In this document: one piece after another, positions 2,861-64,000 of the stretch
How positions within the stretch are numbered: position 1 is the stretch's first letter
Layout: each line of letters starts with the position of its first letter
Assembly (NCBI GenBank): GCA_965263165.1
Contig: OZ253584.1
Location: forward strand, 2,560,747-2,624,746
Source: Dehalococcoidia bacterium
Lineage (GTDB): Bacteria > Chloroflexota > Dehalococcoidia > Lucifugimonadales > SAR202-VII-2
Length of the DNA stretch: 64,000 bases
Reading direction: 5' to 3'
Made by a program: the position numbers and the translations under genes
The notes under the pieces: generated by a model
The model's input: only the letters and a program-made list of their open reading frames with translations
Databases searched by the model: none
What the model was told of the DNA's origin: nothing

Positions 2861-2870
2861 AGGAGACGCA

Positions 2871-2891
2871 CCCTAACCTTCCCCCGAGTAC
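2871..2891. repeat. REP-like palindrome family A, left half (split by IS5; right half 4109-4125)
   Basis: Removing the IS restores cccccgagtactcggggg(cagggac), a perfect palindrome. Confidence 0.85.
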
Positions 2892-4108
2892 GAGACCTTT
2901 GCGTAATCCCCATTGATGCGCCGTTTGGTTGGAATGAGGGTTCTGGCGGGGATTGGGGGGCCTGATGGCGGCCTGCGGCCTGGCTCTCCTCCCCGGTCTC
3001 CCTGACTTCTCAGGGCTTCCCGGGCGCTTCCACCCCCTGCGGGCACACGCCGCCCCCGGCGGTCAGGCGGCATCCAGCAGAAGACGGTCAGCCCGCCGCA
3101 GGTTGTATGCCGCACACTTGAAGAACAGCTCCGTGGCGTTCCGCGCTAGCCCCATGTACCGCACCCGCCGGTAGCCGTAGGTCCGCTTCAGCGTCCCAAA
3201 CACCTTCTCCACCGCCGACCGCTGCTGTGCTATCAGTGCGTTCCGCCGCTGCTCCCACGGCGGCAGCACCGGATGATGCTTGTCCGCCCGCCGCATGATC
3301 CGGTCCTTGATGCCCAGGGACTTGAGCCAGGCACTCCGCTGCTTCGACCCGTAGGCCTTGTCCGCATACACCGCCGCCTCATCTCCCCTCACCAACGCCT
3401 CCGCCACTTCCGTATCGTTCACGTTGGCCGGCGTCAGCACCGCCTCCCGGATCAGCCCTGACCCTGCATCCACCCCCACGTGCGCCTTGTAGCCGAACTG
3501 CGACACCCCCCGCTGGCGCGTGAACCGCGCATCGGGGTCGGTCTCGCTCGGCGCTCCCGGCCGCCTCCCTCGCAGCGAAGGACGCTTCGCCTGCGCCTCC
3601 ACGATGGTCGCATCAAGGAGCGTCCCCTTCTTCACGAAGAGGTTGCGCTGCGCCAATTGCCGGTCCATCTCCTTGAACAGTCGCAGGGCCAAACCCCGCT
3701 CCGTCACTTCCCTGCGGAAGCGGCTGATCGTCGAGTGGTCGGGGACGGCGTCCTCCAGGCCAAGCCCCACGAACCGCTTGAACGAGACCCGGTCCCACAG
3801 CGCTTCCTCGATCGCTTCGTCGGAAGCGTCATACCACTGCTGGAGCACCATGACCTTGACCATCACCACCGGCGGATAGCTCGGACGGCCTGACGGGGCG
3901 GCATAGATGCCCTTGACCACGTTGGCCAACTCCTTCCAGTCCAGCATCGCCTCGAGCCGCTCCAACTTCCCGTTCCGTCCGACTCGGTCCGGGAGAAGCA
4001 CCTCAATGAACGACTGTCCACGTATCGTCCGGTGCATGGCTTCCCCTCCTTGGCGTTGGCTCTCCGTGCTGATTGTGCCTGACCAGAAAGAGGTTATGCA
4101 AAGGTCTC
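2892..4108 (-). mobile_element. IS5-family insertion sequence, complete (1217 bp), GTAC target duplication
   Basis: Terminal IRs GAGACCTTTGCRTAA at both ends; GTAC at 2888-2891 and 4109-4112; single transposase ORF. Confidence 0.95.
3063..4037 (-). CDS. IS5-family DDE transposase (324 aa)
   Basis: GRPSYP, PDHSTISRFR, LDATIVEA, GYKAHVGVD, YADKAY, VEKVFG motifs. Confidence 0.95.
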   Translation of the reverse strand: MHRTIRGQSFIEVLLPDRVGRNGKLERLEAMLDWKELANVVKGIYAAPSGRPSYPPVVMVKVMVLQQWYDASDEAIEEALWDRVSFKRFVGLGLEDAVPDHSTISRFRREVTERGLALRLFKEMDRQLAQRNLFVKKGTLLDATIVEAQAKRPSLRGRRPGAPSETDPDARFTRQRGVSQFGYKAHVGVDAGSGLIREAVLTPANVNDTEVAEALVRGDEAAVYADKAYGSKQRSAWLKSLGIKDRIMRRADKHHPVLPPWEQRRNALIAQQRSAVEKVFGTLKRTYGYRRVRYMGLARNATELFFKCAAYNLRRADRLLLDAA

Positions 4109-4202
4109 GTACTCGGGGGCAGGGACCGGAGGGTTGCCTTGAGCACGAGGGCAGTGATAGGAGGAGGCGACGCCGCGCCGAGGGGCGGCGGGGAAGGGTC
4201 CG

Positions 4203-5770: not shown

Positions 5771-5915
5771 GCCCTCCTTCAGCGGAGGGGTTGGCTTGGC
5801 GTGCGCCGTTGTCCCACCTGCCCACCCTCCAACGTTTTTGGAAACAGGGGGACTCCCCCTGTACCCCCGGCGGGGGCTGCTGCGGCCTGCGCCCTGCTTT
5901 GGGGGACGGGGGGGC
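5771..5915 (+). repeat. Intergenic repeat family B, copy 2
   Basis: Matches the other family B copies (caggggga-ctccccctgt hairpin, ccccggcgggggctgc). Confidence 0.85.
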
Positions 5916-6719: not shown

Positions 6720-6865
6720 CGGGTAACCAGGTGAGCGGCTTACCCTTCCTTGGGTTCGCCCCCAATCTCAAAGCGGGTGACTGCCGGGAGACCATTCGCG
6801 CGGAGCACAGCGATGATGGCGCGAGCAAGTTCTTGATTGGGGTCAGGAGGGGGCGAAACCCCCAT

Positions 6866-6903
6866 CCTAACCTGCCCCCGTATTCGGGGGGCAGGGACAG
6901 AGG
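6866..6903. repeat. REP-like palindrome family A
   Basis: cctaacctgcccccgtattcggggggcagggacagagg. Confidence 0.75.
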
Positions 6904-7003
6904 CGTCTCCGGCGGCAGTTGGAACCCGCAATTGCAGAAATAGGTAGCGTCCCTACCGTGATAAGCCAATGGCGCTCCGTCCTACAAGTGTTAAAGGGCA
7001 GAC

Positions 7004-7453: not shown

Positions 7454-7603
7454 TCTCTGGAATGCCCAACACTTTCCAGACACTACCGCTTTGTACCGAC
7501 ACAGGAGAGCCGGATGCGATGAAAGCCACACGTCCGGTTCGGAGGGGGGCCGACGGAAGAGTGCTCCGGGGCACCGGAGTAACTCGCCTGCGGCCTACCC
7601 TAC
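7454..7603 (+). mobile_element. Group II intron 3' remnant (domains V and VI only)
   Basis: DV gAGCcggatgcgatgaaagccacacgtccggttc (7507-7540) followed by ggagggggg and DVI ending cctaccctAC at 7603. Confidence 0.85.
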
Positions 7604-11096: not shown

Positions 11097-11138
11097 CTGT
11101 CGTTTCCCGTAGCGGTTGTTGAGGGCCCCCCAATCGTG

Positions 11139-11384
11139 ACCTTTCCCTGAGGTACGGGGGGAGGGACGGGAGGGATGGGGCTTATGGTGGCGGGCGCCGT
11201 TGTCCCACCTAACCCACCCTCCAACGTTTTTGGGCACAGGGGGACTCCCCCTGTGCCCCCCGGCGGGGGCTGCGCCCCCTGCACCCTGCTTGGGGGGACG
11301 GAGGGAGAGCGCATCCTGACCTTGCTGCGTTGCAGAGGGGAACGATTCCTCGGTTGCCAACGAGTACGAGGCAGGGACGGGAGG
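11139..11384 (+). repeat. Composite repeat: family A, family B copy 3, degenerate A
   Basis: ggtacgggggagggac, then the B body, tail gcgcatcctgaccttgctgc (shared with 13310), then gagtacgaggcagggac. Confidence 0.8.
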
Positions 11385-13164: not shown

Positions 13165-13413
13165 GCCCTCCTTCGGCGGAGGGTTTTGTTTTGGCTTGCG
13201 CCGCTATCCCGCCCGCTCCGCCCTCCGACGTTTTCCAGGACAGGGGGAGTCCCCCTGTCCCCCCGGCGGGGGCTGCGCCCCCTGCACCCCGCTTGGGGAA
13301 CGAGGAGAGCGCATCTTGACCTTGCTGCATTGCAGAGGGGGGGACGCTTCCTCGGCAGGGGGCGAGATGGGGACCCCCTTCCTAAATCTGCCCCCGTACC
13401 CGGGGGCAGGGAC
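13165..13413 (+). repeat. Composite repeat: family B copy 4 plus family A palindrome
   Basis: B body and tail, then ctgcccccgtacccgggggcagggac at 13388-13413. Confidence 0.85.
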
Positions 13414-13434
13414 ACAGAGGCTTCCCCTGTCGCG

Positions 13435-21818: not shown

Positions 21819-22028
21819 ATGGCAAAACTAAGGGCAAGCGAGCTGAGGCAGTTGAATGATAAGGAGTTGGCGGACGAGCTCTTGGAGTCGCGCCGCTCCC
21901 TGCTGAATCTCCGCTTCAGAAAGGCAACGATGCAGTTGGACAACGTTAACGAGGTGGGCCAGGCCCGGAAGAAGGTGGCCCAGCTTCTCACCATCATCCA
22001 AGAGCGGCGGCTCGTAAGCGAGAGCTAG
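21819..22028 (+). CDS. rpmC: 50S ribosomal protein uL29
   Basis: [16 protein letters not shown]; position in the operon. Confidence 0.95.
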
Positions 22029-22030
22029 TA

Positions 22031-23335
22031 ATGGCGAACCGAAGGACCCGCGTTGGGCGGGTGATCAGAGACAAGATGGAAAAGACCGTCATTGTGGCGG
22101 TGGAGCGGCGGACGACGCACCCGGTGTACCGGAAGACCGTCAAACGACTGACGAAGTTCGCGGCACATGCCGAGAGCGGCGTTTGCTCGGTGGGGGACCT
22201 CGTCCGCATCGAGGAAACGCGGCCACTGTCGCGCTCCAAGCGCTGGCGGGTCATAGAGGTCCTGGAGCGCAAGGCGATCCCGGTGGCAGCCACTGTGGAG
22301 GTGGCAGTGCAAGAGGCCGTCGCCCCGCCAACGCAGGCGCCGGCGGTTGCCCAGGAAACCCCCGCAGCTGAGGTAGCTCCCGGTGAGGTGGCTGAGGCGG
22401 AAGCGCCCGTTGTGGAGGCTTCGTTGGACGAGCCGGTAGCTGAGACGGAGGCATCCGCTGAGGAGGCCTCGTCGGACGAGCCGGTGGCTGAGACGGAGGC
22501 TCCCGTTGAGGATGCGCCGTCGGATGAGCCAGTGCCTGAGACGGGGGCGGCCGTTGAGGATGCGCCGTCGGACGAGCCAGTGGCTGAGACGGAGGCGGCC
22601 GTTGAGGATGCGCCGTCCGATGAGCCGGGAGCTGAGGTGGAAGCGCTCGCTGAGGAGGCTTCGTCGGACGAGCCGGCAGTTGAGGTGGAAGCGCTCGCTG
22701 AGCAGGCTTCGTCGGACGAGCCGGCAGTTGAGGTGGAAGCGTCCGTTGAGGAAGCTTCGTCAGACGAGCCGGTAGCTGAGGCGGAAGCGCCCGTTGAGGA
22801 GGCTTCGTCTGACGAGCCGGCAGTTGAGGTGGAAGCGCTCGCTGAGCAGGCTTCGTCGGACGAGCCGGTAGCTGAGGCGGAAGCGCTCGCTGAGCAGGCT
22901 TCGTCGGACGAGCCGGCAGTTGAGGTGGAAGCGCTCGCTGAGGAGGCTTCGTCGGACGAGCCGGCAGTTGAGGTGGAAGCGTCCGTTGAGGAAGCTTCGT
23001 CAGACGAGCCGGTAGCTGAGGCGGAAGCGCCCGTTGAGGAGGCTTCGTCTGACGAGCCGGCAGTTGAGGTGGAAGCGCCCGTTGAGGAAGCTTCGTCAGA
23101 CGAGCCGGTAGCTGAGGCGGAAGCGCCCGTTGAGGAGGCTTCGTCGGACGAGCCGGTAGCTGAGGCGGAGGCGCTTGTTGAGGATGCGCCAGCGGATGAG
23201 CCGGTAGCTGAGGTGGAAGCGCCCGCTGAGGAGGCTTCGTCGGATGAGGCGGTAGCTGAAGCGGAGGCGTCCGTTGACGAGGCGCCGTCGGAATCCAGTG
23301 AATCCCGGCAGGACGAGCCGGAGAAAGCCCAATGA
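22031..23335 (+). CDS. rpsQ: 30S ribosomal protein uS17 with a ~345-aa acidic repeat tail
   Basis: [33 protein letters not shown] core, then 16-aa repeats; stop overlaps the rplN ATG. Confidence 0.95.
22409..23272 (+). repeat. 18 tandem 48-bp coding repeats ((A/V)EEASSDEP(V/A)(A/V)E(A/V)EA(P/L/S))
   Basis: 48-bp period verified (e.g. tgaggtggaagcg at 22681 and 22729); no unique spacers. Confidence 0.95.
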
Positions 23336-23700
23336 TTCAGCCCCAAACTCGCCTGCGAGTAGCTGACAACTCCGGCGCCAAGGTCATCATGTGCATAAAC
23401 GTTCCGGGCGGCACGCGAAGACGTTACGCCCGGGTCGGCGACATCATCGTGGCATCCGTGAAGGAGGCCATCCCCAACTCGGCGGTGCCCAAGGGGGAGG
23501 TCATCCGAGCCGTCATCGTGCGGACCACCAACCCTACCCGACGGCCCGACGGCACCTACATCCGCTTCGACGACAACGCAGCGGTGGTGCTGTCCGACCA
23601 GCACAATCCGAGGGGAACCCGTATATTCGGGCCCGTCGCTCGAGAGCTGCGAGAGAAGGCATTCACGCGCATCGTTTCCCTGGCTCCGGAGGTGCTCTAG
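23332..23700 (+). CDS. rplN: 50S ribosomal protein uL14
   Basis: [32 protein letters not shown]. Confidence 0.99.
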
Positions 23701-23701
23701 C

Positions 23702-24019
23702 ATGGCGGCAAAGATTCGAAAGGGAGATACGGTGGAGATCATGCGGGGCAAGGACCGGGGCAAGCGGGGCGCCGTTCAGGGATTGGACCCCAAGAACGGT
23801 CTGATTATGGTGGAGGGGCTCAACCAGGTTACGAAGCACGTGCGCCCCAACCCCAGGATGCGCCAGGCCGGACGGATTACCAGCGAGATGCCGTTGCCTG
23901 TTGGCAACGTCCGGTTCGTATGCGTCAATTGCGGAAAGGCCGTCCGGGTGGGTTTTCAGATGCTCGACGATGGAACTAAGGTCCGGGTGTGCAAACACTG
24001 TGGCGAGTCGGTGGAGTAA
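23702..24019 (+). CDS. rplX: 50S ribosomal protein uL24
   Basis: [17 protein letters not shown] (KOW). Confidence 0.98.
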
Positions 24020-44000: not shown

Positions 44001-44116
44001 GCCGCGGGGCTCTCCGTGGGTGTGATTGTCGAAGCTGTCCACGGCCAGCCATAGTACCACAGATTGGGCCGAGGCTGCATCCGCGGCTCGGGGTTGGCGC
44101 ACCCCTGCCCCAGTCT

Positions 44117-44190
44117 GTCCCTTCCCCCGACTAACAGGGAAGGTGTGTTGCGCGTCACTACCCCCCGTACTCGGGGGCAGGGAGGAAGGG
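44117..44190. repeat. REP-like family A copies (two degenerate)
   Basis: gtcccttcccccgac...gggaagg and ccccccgtactcgggggcaggga. Confidence 0.65.
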
Positions 44191-44211
44191 GGTCCCATTC
44201 CCTCCGGGCCC

Positions 44212-47355: not shown

Positions 47356-47440
47356 TGGTGGGGAAGCCGGCACTCGAACCCGGACGCCTTGCGGCACATG
47401 ATCCTAAGTCATGCTCGTCTGCCAGTTCCGAGACTTCCCC
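47356..47440 (-). tRNA. trnL: tRNA-Leu(TAG), variant copy with a broken G53-C61 pair (possible pseudo-tRNA)
   Basis: Cloverleaf with long variable arm and CCA; three substitutions relative to 48542-48626. Confidence 0.85.
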
Positions 47441-48541: not shown

Positions 48542-48626
48542 TGGTGGGGAAGCCGGGACTCGAACCCGGACGCCTTGCGGCACATGATCCTAAGTCATGC
48601 TCGTCTGCCAATTCCGACACTTCCCC
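48542..48626 (-). tRNA. trnL: tRNA-Leu(TAG), intact
   Basis: GGGGAAG/CTTCCCC acceptor stem, CATGA-CTTAGGA-TCATG anticodon arm, CCGGG-TTCGAGT-CCCGG T arm, ACCA end. Confidence 0.97.
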
Positions 48627-58211: not shown

Positions 58212-58315
58212 TGCTCTCCGTGTGGGCGTTCCCTATCGCGATGTTGCAGGACGATAGCTTTAGCAGGCGCGTCCTAGATGTCGTTCCTATCGAGGTTGTT
58301 GCGCGGGGCCCCCAT

Positions 58316-58352
58316 CCTAGCCTTCCTCCGTAGCCGGGGAAGGGACGAGAGG
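58316..58352. repeat. REP-like family A copy
   Basis: cctagccttcctccgtagccggggaagggacgagagg. Confidence 0.65.
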
Positions 58353-58395
58353 ATTCTTCCGCCTGGCGCCCGTGGCAACGTCCCTGGGAAGCGCG

Positions 58396-62475: not shown

Positions 62476-62542
62476 GGATCCTCTGAACAAGCCTGCAGGA
62501 AGGCGCCGCGCATCAGGCGCCTTCCGCTGCTCGGGGTATCCT

Positions 62543-62577
62543 CCCATCCCTGCCCCCGAGTGCGGAGGCAGGTTGGG
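62543..62577. repeat. REP-like family A copy
   Basis: cccatccctgcccccgagtgcggaggcaggttggg. Confidence 0.6.
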
Positions 62578-62621
62578 AAGCGTCTTACCCCGCCCCGCTT
62601 CCACGCCGCCACCCCGCCTAC

Positions 62622-62650: not shown

Positions 62651-62865
62651 ATCGTCAAGATGCTCAAGTATCACCATGAAGCGGGCTGCCGCTCCACTCC
62701 GTTCCTGGCGCCGGACTACCCCTCTGCGACGGCTACACTACGGCTACGCGACAGTTCTGTGCCTGGCGCCCCCAACATTCGGCTGATGAGAGTAGCCAAC
62801 ATACAACATGCAATCAAAGACCGAACCTTCTCCCGGTGAATTCCCCCGTCCCTTCCCCCGGGTAC

Positions 62866-64000
62866 GAGACCTTTGCATAACCTCTTTCTGGTCAGGCACA
62901 ATCAGCACGGAGAGCCAACGCCAAGGAGGGGAAGCCATGCACCGGACGATACGTGGACAGTCGTTCATTGAGGTGCTTCTCCCGGACCGAGTCGGACGGA
63001 ACGGGAAGTTGGAGCGGCTCGAGGCGATGCTGGACTGGAAGGAGTTGGCCAACGTGGTCAAGGGCATCTATGCCGCCCCGTCAGGCCGTCCGAGCTATCC
63101 GCCGGTGGTGATGGTCAAGGTCATGGTGCTCCAGCAGTGGTATGACGCTTCCGACGAAGCGATCGAGGAAGCGCTGTGGGACCGGGTCTCGTTCAAGCGG
63201 TTCGTGGGGCTTGGCCTGGAGGACGCCGTCCCCGACCACTCGACGATCAGCCGCTTCCGCAGGGAAGTGACGGAGCGGGGTTTGGCCCTGCGACTGTTCA
63301 AGGAGATGGACCGGCAATTGGCGCAGCGCAACCTCTTCGTGAAGAAGGGGACGCTCCTCGATGCGACCATCGTGGAGGCGCAGGCGAAGCGTCCTTCGCT
63401 GCGAGGGAGGCGGCCGGGAGCGCCGAGCGAGACCGACCCCGATGCGCGGTTCACGCGCCAGCGGGGGGTGTCGCAGTTCGGCTACAAGGCGCACGTGGGG
63501 GTGGATGCAGGGTCAGGGCTGATCCGGGAGGCGGTGCTGACGCCGGCCAACGTGAACGATACGGAAGTGGCGGAGGCGTTGGTGAGGGGAGATGAGGCGG
63601 CGGTGTATGCGGACAAGGCCTACGGGTCGAAGCAGCGGAGTGCCTGGCTCAAGTCCCTGGGCATCAAGGACCGGATCATGCGGCGGGCGGACAAGCATCA
63701 TCCGGTGCTGCCGCCGTGGGAGCAGCGGCGGAACGCACTGATAGCACAGCAGCGGTCGGCGGTGGAGAAGGTGTTTGGGACGCTGAAGCGGACCTACGGC
63801 TACCGGCGGGTGCGGTACATGGGGCTAGCGCGGAACGCCACGGAGCTGTTCTTCAAATGTGCGGCATACAACCTGCGGCGGGCGGACCGTCTTCTGCTGG
63901 ATGCCGCCTGACCGCCGGGGGCGGCGTGTGCCCGCAGGGGGTGGAAGCGCCCGGGAAGCCCTGAGAAGTCAGGGAGACCGGGGAGGAGAGCCAGGCCGCA
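62866..64000 (+). mobile_element. IS5-family element, second copy (right end beyond the window)
   Basis: Left IR GAGACCTTTGCATAA preceded by cccccgggTAC; near-identical to 2892-4108. Confidence 0.95.
62937..63911 (+). CDS. IS5-family transposase (324 aa)
   Basis: Same protein sequence as 3063-4037. Confidence 0.95.
   Translation: MHRTIRGQSFIEVLLPDRVGRNGKLERLEAMLDWKELANVVKGIYAAPSGRPSYPPVVMVKVMVLQQWYDASDEAIEEALWDRVSFKRFVGLGLEDAVPDHSTISRFRREVTERGLALRLFKEMDRQLAQRNLFVKKGTLLDATIVEAQAKRPSLRGRRPGAPSETDPDARFTRQRGVSQFGYKAHVGVDAGSGLIREAVLTPANVNDTEVAEALVRGDEAAVYADKAYGSKQRSAWLKSLGIKDRIMRRADKHHPVLPPWEQRRNALIAQQRSAVEKVFGTLKRTYGYRRVRYMGLARNATELFFKCAAYNLRRADRLLLDAA

Follow-up and report, generated by a model that had tools for sequence, protein, structure and literature searches.

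An IS5-family insertion sequence located at the axis of a REP-like palindrome

Introduction

Insertion into repetitive extragenic palindromic (REP) sequences has been shown for insertion sequences (IS) of the families IS3, IS110, IS4, IS256 and IS5 (Tobes and Pareja 2006, PMC1525189). The only IS5-family case in that survey, ISNm1106, has a loose 'type 2' association with REPs (PMC1525189), in line with the remark in a preliminary description of the DNA studied here that such targeting is less typical of IS5. The present work concerns an IS5-family element found in two copies, W1 and W2, in a 64-kb stretch of contig OZ253584.1 (64 000 nucleotides, hereafter the window), and a family of REP-like palindromes of the same DNA, REP-A. 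We report that copies of this element are located at the axis of REP-A, and compare their placement with that of related elements in other genomes.

The closest described behaviour is that of ISRm22 of Sinorhizobium meliloti 1021, classified as a 'type 1' REP-targeting IS (PMC1525189). All of its copies lie in REPs and, as in our element, 6-bp repeats are formed, the insertion is exactly at the palindrome axis and the duplication has G/C pairs at its ends; in some copies the repeats do not match, for which the authors invoke recombination between copies (PMC1525189). The likeness is one of behaviour and not of descent: ISRm22 has an IS4 and not an IS5 transposase, lives in another host phylum and uses another REP sequence. 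Its membership of the IS4 family, subgroup IS4Sa (PMC2266710), rules it out as a homologue, and it is not among the 15 plasmid matches listed for our transposase, of more than 5000 matching records. ISNm1106 (IS1106) of Neisseria meningitidis is an IS5-family element (Pfam PF01609) that prefers REP-containing intergenic regions (PMC1525189), but only about half of its copies are close to REPs and the element is not bordered by halves of a split REP, whereas the axis is split at nine of 10 sites here.

The staphylococcal elements IS1272/TnSha1 belong to the IS1182 family, which is sister to IS5 and has the DUF772 N-terminal domain in common with it. They insert, in either orientation, in inverted repeats able to form hairpins, which are often terminators, but they cut bluntly in the stem, with partial deletion of the target and no duplication, and no primary-sequence preference was found for them (PMC4923244). 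Our element, in contrast, has duplications of 5–6 bp at the loop; these duplications, and a score of 198.5 bits against the IS1182 model NF033551 (cutoff 270), rule out membership of the IS1182 family. Elements of the families IS110 (ISPpu9, ISPpu10, ISPa11, IS621) and IS3 (IS1397, ISKpn1) are reported to insert with high specificity in REPs, which serve as neutral landing sites (PMC1525189; PMC11208160). IS110 elements differ in using a DEDD recombinase with a bridge/seek RNA as its guide and in making no comparable duplication, and IS3 elements have frameshifted two-ORF (open reading frame) transposases, unlike the single-ORF DDE transposase of our element. No sign of a guide RNA was seen for the latter; no search aimed at one was made.

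Results

Insertion sites in the window

W1 is a complete copy of 1217 bp at positions 2892–4108, on the reverse strand, its ends being located from the sequence. Its single-ORF transposase gene (3063–4037, reverse strand) codes for a protein of 324 amino acids with the domains DUF772 and DDE_Tnp_1. W2 starts at 62866 in the opposite orientation (forward strand) and is truncated by the end of the window at 64000; its transposase gene lies at 62937–63911.

The word GTAC is present immediately outside both ends of W1 (2888–2891 and 4109–4112). The joined flanks read accctaaccttCCCCCGAGTACTCGGGGGcagggacc, and removal of the IS with one GTAC restores CCCCCGAGTACTCGGGGG. The left half of the split REP, at 2865–2891 (forward strand), is composed of CCTAACCTTCCCCCGA and the GTAC copy at 2888–2891, and matches a REP-A profile over 2865–2892 (model positions 12–39). 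The right half, at 4109–4138 (forward strand), consists of the GTAC copy at 4109–4112 and TCGGGGGCAGGGACCGGAGG, and matches over 4106–4138 (model positions 30–62, 15.5 bits). The profile was built from the six uninterrupted members of the window alone. It matches the rebuilt empty site of W1 across the junction (27.8 bits, E 1.5e-8), and this site is thus a genuine member of the family and more than a mere palindrome. The preliminary description had placed the element at the centre of a palindrome by rebuilding the empty site, a proposal that agrees with this result.

W2 is directly preceded by cgtcccttcccccggGTAC, as had also been noticed in the preliminary description. This sequence belongs to a REP half-site at 62837–62865 on the reverse strand (GTCCCTTCCCCCGGGTAC), which matches the profile over 62837–62868 (model positions 30–61, 12.3 bits). 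The half-site at W2 and the REP at W1 have the same orientation relative to the IS. The Rieske oxygenase protein neighbouring W2 gave no record match in the search for the empty site of W2 in another strain, and among Logan contigs, which break at repeats, no read passing over the IS was seen. Outside the IS copies, GTAC occurs 129 times in the window, and just three of these occurrences are inside REP loops.

Insertion sites of the same element in other assemblies

Metagenome assemblies of ENA include at least 10 places that encode an identical 324-amino-acid transposase, in elements 99.8% identical to W1. Among the places listed, four long contigs of a single assembly (ERZ26167216) account for eight and other samples for two; W2 is not one of them, yet its junction was found in the sequencing runs X4 and X5. 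Sites outside the window are designated below by L numbers. With shared sites counted once, W1, W2 and the ENA places represent 10 independent sites: L027 corresponds to the W1 locus of a different strain, its flanks sharing 95% and 99.6% identity with those of W1, and L031 repeats L022.

REP-A is split at nine of these 10 sites, with profile matches of 9.8–31.6 bits across the junction. The tenth site, L026, is a different, non-REP small hairpin, CCCCGCC-GGAAC-GGGGG. Broken REPs at the junctions, the mark of a 'type 1' association, are thus present at nine of the 10 rebuilt sites, and the half-repeats of the window are also matched by the profile. At every site of this IS there is a C-rich arm on one side and a G-rich arm on the other, and the eight copies of ERZ26167216 are all located between called genes. 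The duplications are GTACTC (three sites), GAGTGC, GAGTAC, GTACCC and GGAAC, with two further 6-mers containing one mismatch. If the asymmetric outer parts of the REP are taken as the reference, the IS is in the '−' orientation at five sites and in the '+' orientation at three, which rules out a fixed orientation.

The preliminary description had suggested a comparison with all GTAC sites and had proposed that the finding of other copies at random GTAC sites outside the palindrome would refute a host repeat as the target. None of the 10 independent sites is such a random GTAC. The duplication of GTAC is real at W1, whereas the normal duplication is 5–6 bp and GTAC is not required. GTAC as a target word is ruled out by the duplication of GAGTGC, GGAAC, AGATA and CTCAAG, the last two in related elements, and by the three of 129 free copies in REP loops. 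The reading of the host repeat as the target is supported: the nine REP-A sites are split at the axis, the remaining one is in another hairpin, and related elements behave likewise.

Geometry of insertion

The usual duplication of 5–6 bp (rarely 4) corresponds, in the folded rebuilt sites, to the tip of the hairpin, that is, the loop with its closing base pair. A typical 6-mer contains the closing G-C pair and a 4-nt loop, for example CCCC[G TACT C]GGGG. The centre of the duplication is within 0.5 nt of the palindrome axis in 15 of the 17 sites with an exact duplication. The points of strand transfer are 5–6 bp apart, rarely 4, and symmetric about the axis, so that the duplicated bases are the 4-nt loop and the closing G-C pair. 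The duplication length also follows loop parity to some extent: loops of 3 nt go with 5 bp (L013, L015, L026) and loops of 4 nt with 6 bp (L001, L019, L027–L031).

A duplication of 4 bp accompanied by one extra base at each IS end was considered as another description of the same junctions. The bases abutting GAGACC...GGTCTC vary within one genome, being A..A at L015, C..G at L008 and G..C at L019, which rules this out. Since these bases differ between copies they are target DNA, and the duplication is truly of 5–6 bp.

REP-A loops take up about 0.1% of all positions, and by chance nine of 10 sites would fall in REP-A with a probability of about 1e-25; with intergenic DNA alone available, where the loops take up about 1% of positions, the value is about 1e-17.

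The REP-A family and the unused REP-B repeat

The six uninterrupted members of the palindrome family named in the preliminary description were all recovered, with profile scores of 29.1–43.4 bits. On the forward strand they are located at 6850–6915 (CCTAACCTGCCCCCGTATTCGGGGGGCAGGGAC; 35.0 bits), 11119–11186 (left arm degenerate; 29.1 bits), 13365–13433 (CTGCCCCCGTACCCGGGGGCAGGGAC; 43.4 bits), 44138–44204 (CCCCCCGTACTCGGGGGCAGGGAG; 34.5 bits) and 58300–58366 (36.7 bits), and on the reverse strand at 62526–62591 (38.4 bits), 275 bp upstream of W2. The member at 44138–44204 has a weak inverted partner at 44114–44146 (15.5 bits). The members can be aligned over about 55 nt, with a consensus core of approximately CCTAACCT(G/T)CCCCCG-4 nt-CGGGGG(C/A)AGGGAC; the full consensus is asymmetric, approximately (A/C)TCCTAACCT(G/T)CCCCCG - 4 nt - CGGGGG(C/A)AGGGAC(G/A)G(A/G)GGAT. 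About 16 intact copies are present in about 93 kb of DNA of the species (6–8 in the 64-kb window and about eight in 31 kb of other flanks), and the predicted hairpins have energies of −8 to −20 kcal/mol. REP-A thus has the features of a REP: it is a short imperfect palindrome in many copies, and those that carry the IS are intergenic according to gene calls. A search of Rfam gave no known RNA family at the REPs. A match to domains V–VI of group II catalytic introns (RF00029, 54.6 bits) was found at 7505–7603 (forward strand), an intron or a remnant of one about 600 bp from the REP at 6850–6915.

A second palindrome, REP-B, has the core CCCCC-GGC/GCC-GGGGG within a larger repeated module. It is present in 16 copies in the same DNA, and none of them carries the IS; the probability of this avoidance is about 0.008 if REP-A and REP-B are hit in proportion to their numbers. 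As the G+C-only REP-B is as common as REP-A and is never hit, not every hairpin is accepted. The REP-B module, with the palindrome CCCCC(C)GGCGGGGG, occurs at 2758–2857, 5780–5913, 11171–11305 and 13217–13309 and often adjoins REP-A. Its word depth is about 125 times (run X4) to about 1000 times (run X6) that of single-copy DNA, which indicates that the module is very abundant in the organism, in other members of the sponge community, or in both.

Every observed duplication includes A or T. At the non-REP sites L008, L009 and L033, all occupied by related elements, the duplication adjoins a C-run or a G-run on one side at least. Hairpins that are imperfect, their arm mismatches being uncompensated, also serve as targets, at L022/L031, L029 and L024.

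Identity and recent movement of the element

The 324-amino-acid protein of W1 matches the Pfam families PF01609 (DDE_Tnp_1, 101 bits) and PF05598 (DUF772, 91 bits), and over residues 25–313 the NCBIfam model NF033581, 'IS5 family transposase', with 291.9 bits against a cutoff of 140. The termini of W1 are GAGACCTTTGCGTAATCC and GGTTATGCAAAGGTCTC, the second being GAGACCTTTGCATAACCT when reverse-complemented; about 16 of the 18 positions of these inverted repeats agree, with the core GAGACCTTTGC. A single DDE transposase above the cutoff, short inverted repeats and a length of 1217 bp (about 1–1.5 kb is expected) are as in the IS5 family. Within this family, the IS5 subgroup of ISfinder is characterized by a 4-bp target duplication, often at YTAR-like sites. 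The element departs from this pattern: its duplications are of 5–6 bp, as they are in four related lineages and in relatives from Rhizobium and Mesorhizobium, and among the sites compared a 4-bp duplication is confined to W1.

The 11 IS copies are mutually 99.7–100% identical (W1 is 99.7–99.8% identical to the 10 others), and W2 differs from W1 at three positions over 1135 bp. Near-identical copies at different loci, with exact duplications of 5–6 bp at seven of 10 sites, are the mark of a mobile element, and W1 is an intact, active IS5-family insertion sequence. Recent movement of the element follows from the near-identity of its copies and from their differences between strains. The best match to the window is run X4, which contains 99% of the sampled words and is probably the source of the window; a 77-nt unitig of this run, at single-copy depth, reproduces the left junction of W1 without mismatch. 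The word depth of the IS in the same run is about 9–13 times that of the flanks, which can serve as a rough guide only.

W1 and W2 are inverted relative to each other, about 59 kb apart and, given their three differences in 1135 bp, a ready substrate for inversion of the intervening segment. The pair flanks a ribosomal-protein region, which is thus potentially invertible.

Related elements

The closest relatives found in genome contigs have transposase identities of at most 83%. Three Dehalococcoidia metagenome-assembled genomes (MAGs) contain lineages whose proteins are 83, 79 and 76% identical to that of our element and which have the same GAGACCTTTGCATAAC ends, with 4–10 sites each. In most of their copies the insertion divides the local variant of the REP at the loop, for example CTCTAACTCTCCCCCG-CAGA-CGGGAGAGAGGAC and CCTAACCTTCTCCC-CTCAA-GGGAGAAGGGAC. 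The duplications include TAGAC, GCAGAC, AGATA, CATAG, CTCAAG, CAGAG, CTAATG, GTACGC and CACCC. An exact 32-mer of the IS end had no match in Joint Genome Institute metagenome contigs; a looser pattern found a fifth lineage, in the LXNJ01 metagenome contigs, with REP-like arms at all five of its left junctions. Apart from our element, four lineages of other Chloroflexota genomes or metagenomes are placed in this manner.

More distantly, an IS on a plasmid of Rhizobium sp. Kim5 (49% protein identity) splits CACTTCTCCCC-GAC-GGGGAGAAGTG with the duplication CGACG, and an intact copy of the same hairpin is present 130 bp away. The Mesorhizobium relative at L033 is inside istB, with the 6-bp duplication ATCATT. 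At L009 a related copy interrupts an apparent ORF for a group II intron reverse transcriptase (…VRRVNLPKPNG|G…, L009:2380–2440, frame read by eye); this is a genic, non-REP site with the duplication CTAATG, followed by GGGGG. The site L017 has no C-run. The stagger of 5–6 bp and the preference for sites composed of a C-run, a loop and a G-run look like properties of the clade.

Two transposase-less elements of 171 bp (MITEs, or miniature inverted-repeat transposable elements), bearing the IS ends AAGACCTTTGCATAA...CGCAAGGGTCTC, are located at L014:1926–2096 and 2179–2349, each in a REP loop; as a pair they make up a tandem unit of 253 bp, which lies directly upstream of a full IS copy. A 142-bp element with the same GAGACCTTTGCATAAC / GGTCTC ends and the flanks AGCTT and AGATT is present at L039:3599–3740, in the A+T-rich metagenome contig SDBU01043809, and has no REP in its vicinity. 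A very different type of genome therefore also harbours the IS lineage, or its MITEs. The loci L004 and L020, both on contig 3 of the MAG CBDDDS01, are about 35 kb apart and inverted, and their IS flanks are identical over at least 45 nt on each side, which corresponds to a large inverted duplication or to an assembly artefact.

Dehalococcoidia MAGs contain the nearest relatives, and the window is present in runs of sponge metagenomes or of coded organisms; its host is probably a bacterium of the Chloroflexota that lives in association with sponges.

Other features of the window

A tandem array of about 18–20 imperfect 48-nt repeats (16 codons each) occupies 22297–23412, within an ORF of 589 amino acids at 21994–23763 (reverse strand) that probably codes for a repeat protein. 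Two tRNA-Leu(TAG) genes (47356–47440 and 48542–48626, reverse strand) are 1186 bp apart in a direct duplication, the flanks of which match at 86–95%.

Discussion

The precision of half a base is beyond what selection can produce, and the copies are near-identical and variable between strains, so that targeting of REP-A by the element itself is well supported; we hold it with high confidence. Concerning the mechanism, we propose that the DDE transposase steers integration towards the two-fold axis of REP-A. A transposase complex with two-fold symmetry would most likely read the target as duplex DNA, and its preferred site would be composed of a C-run, a short A/T-containing centre and a G-run. 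REP-A would be the best and most frequent match to such a site in the genome, and landing in it would keep the element out of genes. As the feature recognized we favour a symmetric duplex consensus whose centre is deformable over an extruded structure, and give this reading roughly an even chance of being correct. It is supported by the absence of hits in the perfect hairpin of REP-B, by the use of imperfect hairpins, by the presence of A or T in every duplication and by the C-run or G-run that adjoins the duplication at non-REP sites. The use of the repeat as a safe harbour, as put forward in the preliminary description, is a reasonable inference from the intergenic position of the eight ERZ26167216 copies.

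Several observations weigh against this interpretation. Eight of the 10 additional places listed come from another strain and from a single metagenome assembly, with flanks 95–99.6% identical to the window, and the count of nine in 10 thus combines the copies of the window with those of the assembly of another strain. Related copies at L003, L004, L006, L010, L011 and L018 have no duplication; such cases may be attributed, by analogy with the account of Tobes and Pareja for ISRm22, to recombination between copies. W1 itself is flanked by GAGTAC and GTACTC, a direct repeat of 4 bp that departs from the rule of 5–6 bp. At the same locus in the other strain (L027:1923–1928 and 3147–3152) GTACTC is found on both sides, and the REP arms also differ from those of the window, which suggests either two independent hits on one REP or conversion between copies that reached the REP arms; a true 4-bp insertion event at W1 may also be the origin of the GTAC junction. 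Finally, recognition of sequence and recognition of structure are inseparable by computation, since every REP is both, and two observations fit a reading of structure: C-runs are common to all arms, while the sequence of the arms is otherwise lineage-specific and the position still centred on the axis, and the relation between duplication length and loop parity has a one-sided P of about 0.07, computed by hand on sites that are not independent.

The element may instead recognize structure as such, by reading an extruded cruciform, a hairpin or a distortion at the apex, with the joining points placed symmetrically about the loop. We regard this as possible but rather doubtful. It accounts for insertions centred on the axis in spite of arms as different as CCCCCG, CTCTCCC, TCTCCCCCG and CTTCTCCCC and for the tendency of the duplication to follow loop parity, and IS1272/TnSha1 of the IS1182 family provides a reported precedent for targeting of hairpins without a conserved primary sequence (PMC4923244). 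It is difficult to reconcile, however, with the perfect hairpin of REP-B being unused while imperfect hairpins are used, and with the sites without a convincing hairpin (L009, L017 and L033); the parity trend is weak, with the exceptions L002, L007, L009 and L012, and DDE transposases normally act on duplex targets. In a more far-reaching version, the transposase of an old IS5 subclade, extending from sponge-associated Chloroflexota to plasmids of Alphaproteobacteria (49% identity), would read the geometry of the hairpin or cruciform apex and not the base sequence, and a duplication of 4, 5 or 6 bp would follow the size of the loop. This is an unlikely scenario; if it were true, the enzyme would be a DDE transposase whose variable stagger is defined by structure.

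Targeting by the element, as preferred above, also has to be distinguished from two explanations in which no host repeat is chosen. Insertion could be nearly random, with survivors only in harmless intergenic repeats. The intergenic position of the eight ERZ26167216 copies agrees with this, and genic insertions would be lost from the streamlined genome of a symbiont. Survivors of selection would nevertheless be spread over all intergenic DNA, of which REP-A loops are so small a part, and would not fall within half a base of an axis; the identity of 99.7–100% indicates that the copies are young, and relatives tolerate genic sites (the reverse-transcriptase ORF at L009 and istB at L033). We consider this explanation highly improbable. 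The palindromic flanks could also be part of the element, its inverted repeats extending to CCCCCGAGTAC, as the flanks of W1 are mutually inverted repeats and W2 has a similar flank. This proposal has next to no likelihood: the palindrome occurs uninterrupted at least 14 times without the IS, the flanks vary between copies of which the IS itself is 99.8% identical, the direct duplications abut GAGACC...GGTCTC, the bases adjacent to the ends vary within one genome, and the outer parts of the REP are found in both orientations relative to the IS. Palindromic flanks of this kind should not be annotated as extended inverted repeats.

The targeting of REPs by IS is already known, as is the role of REPs as neutral landing sites, and no new mechanism is opened by our data. 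The element is a precise IS5-family example of this known class. With it the IS5 family joins IS3, IS110 and IS4, for which the 'type 1' association had been published, and a clean case of precise REP targeting is added in Chloroflexota, where REPs and their IS guests have been little described. The geometry of 5–6 bp centred on the axis, found in relatives as distant as that of Rhizobium, suggests that the choice of target is a heritable property of this transposase clade, which could be dissected by mutation of the target.

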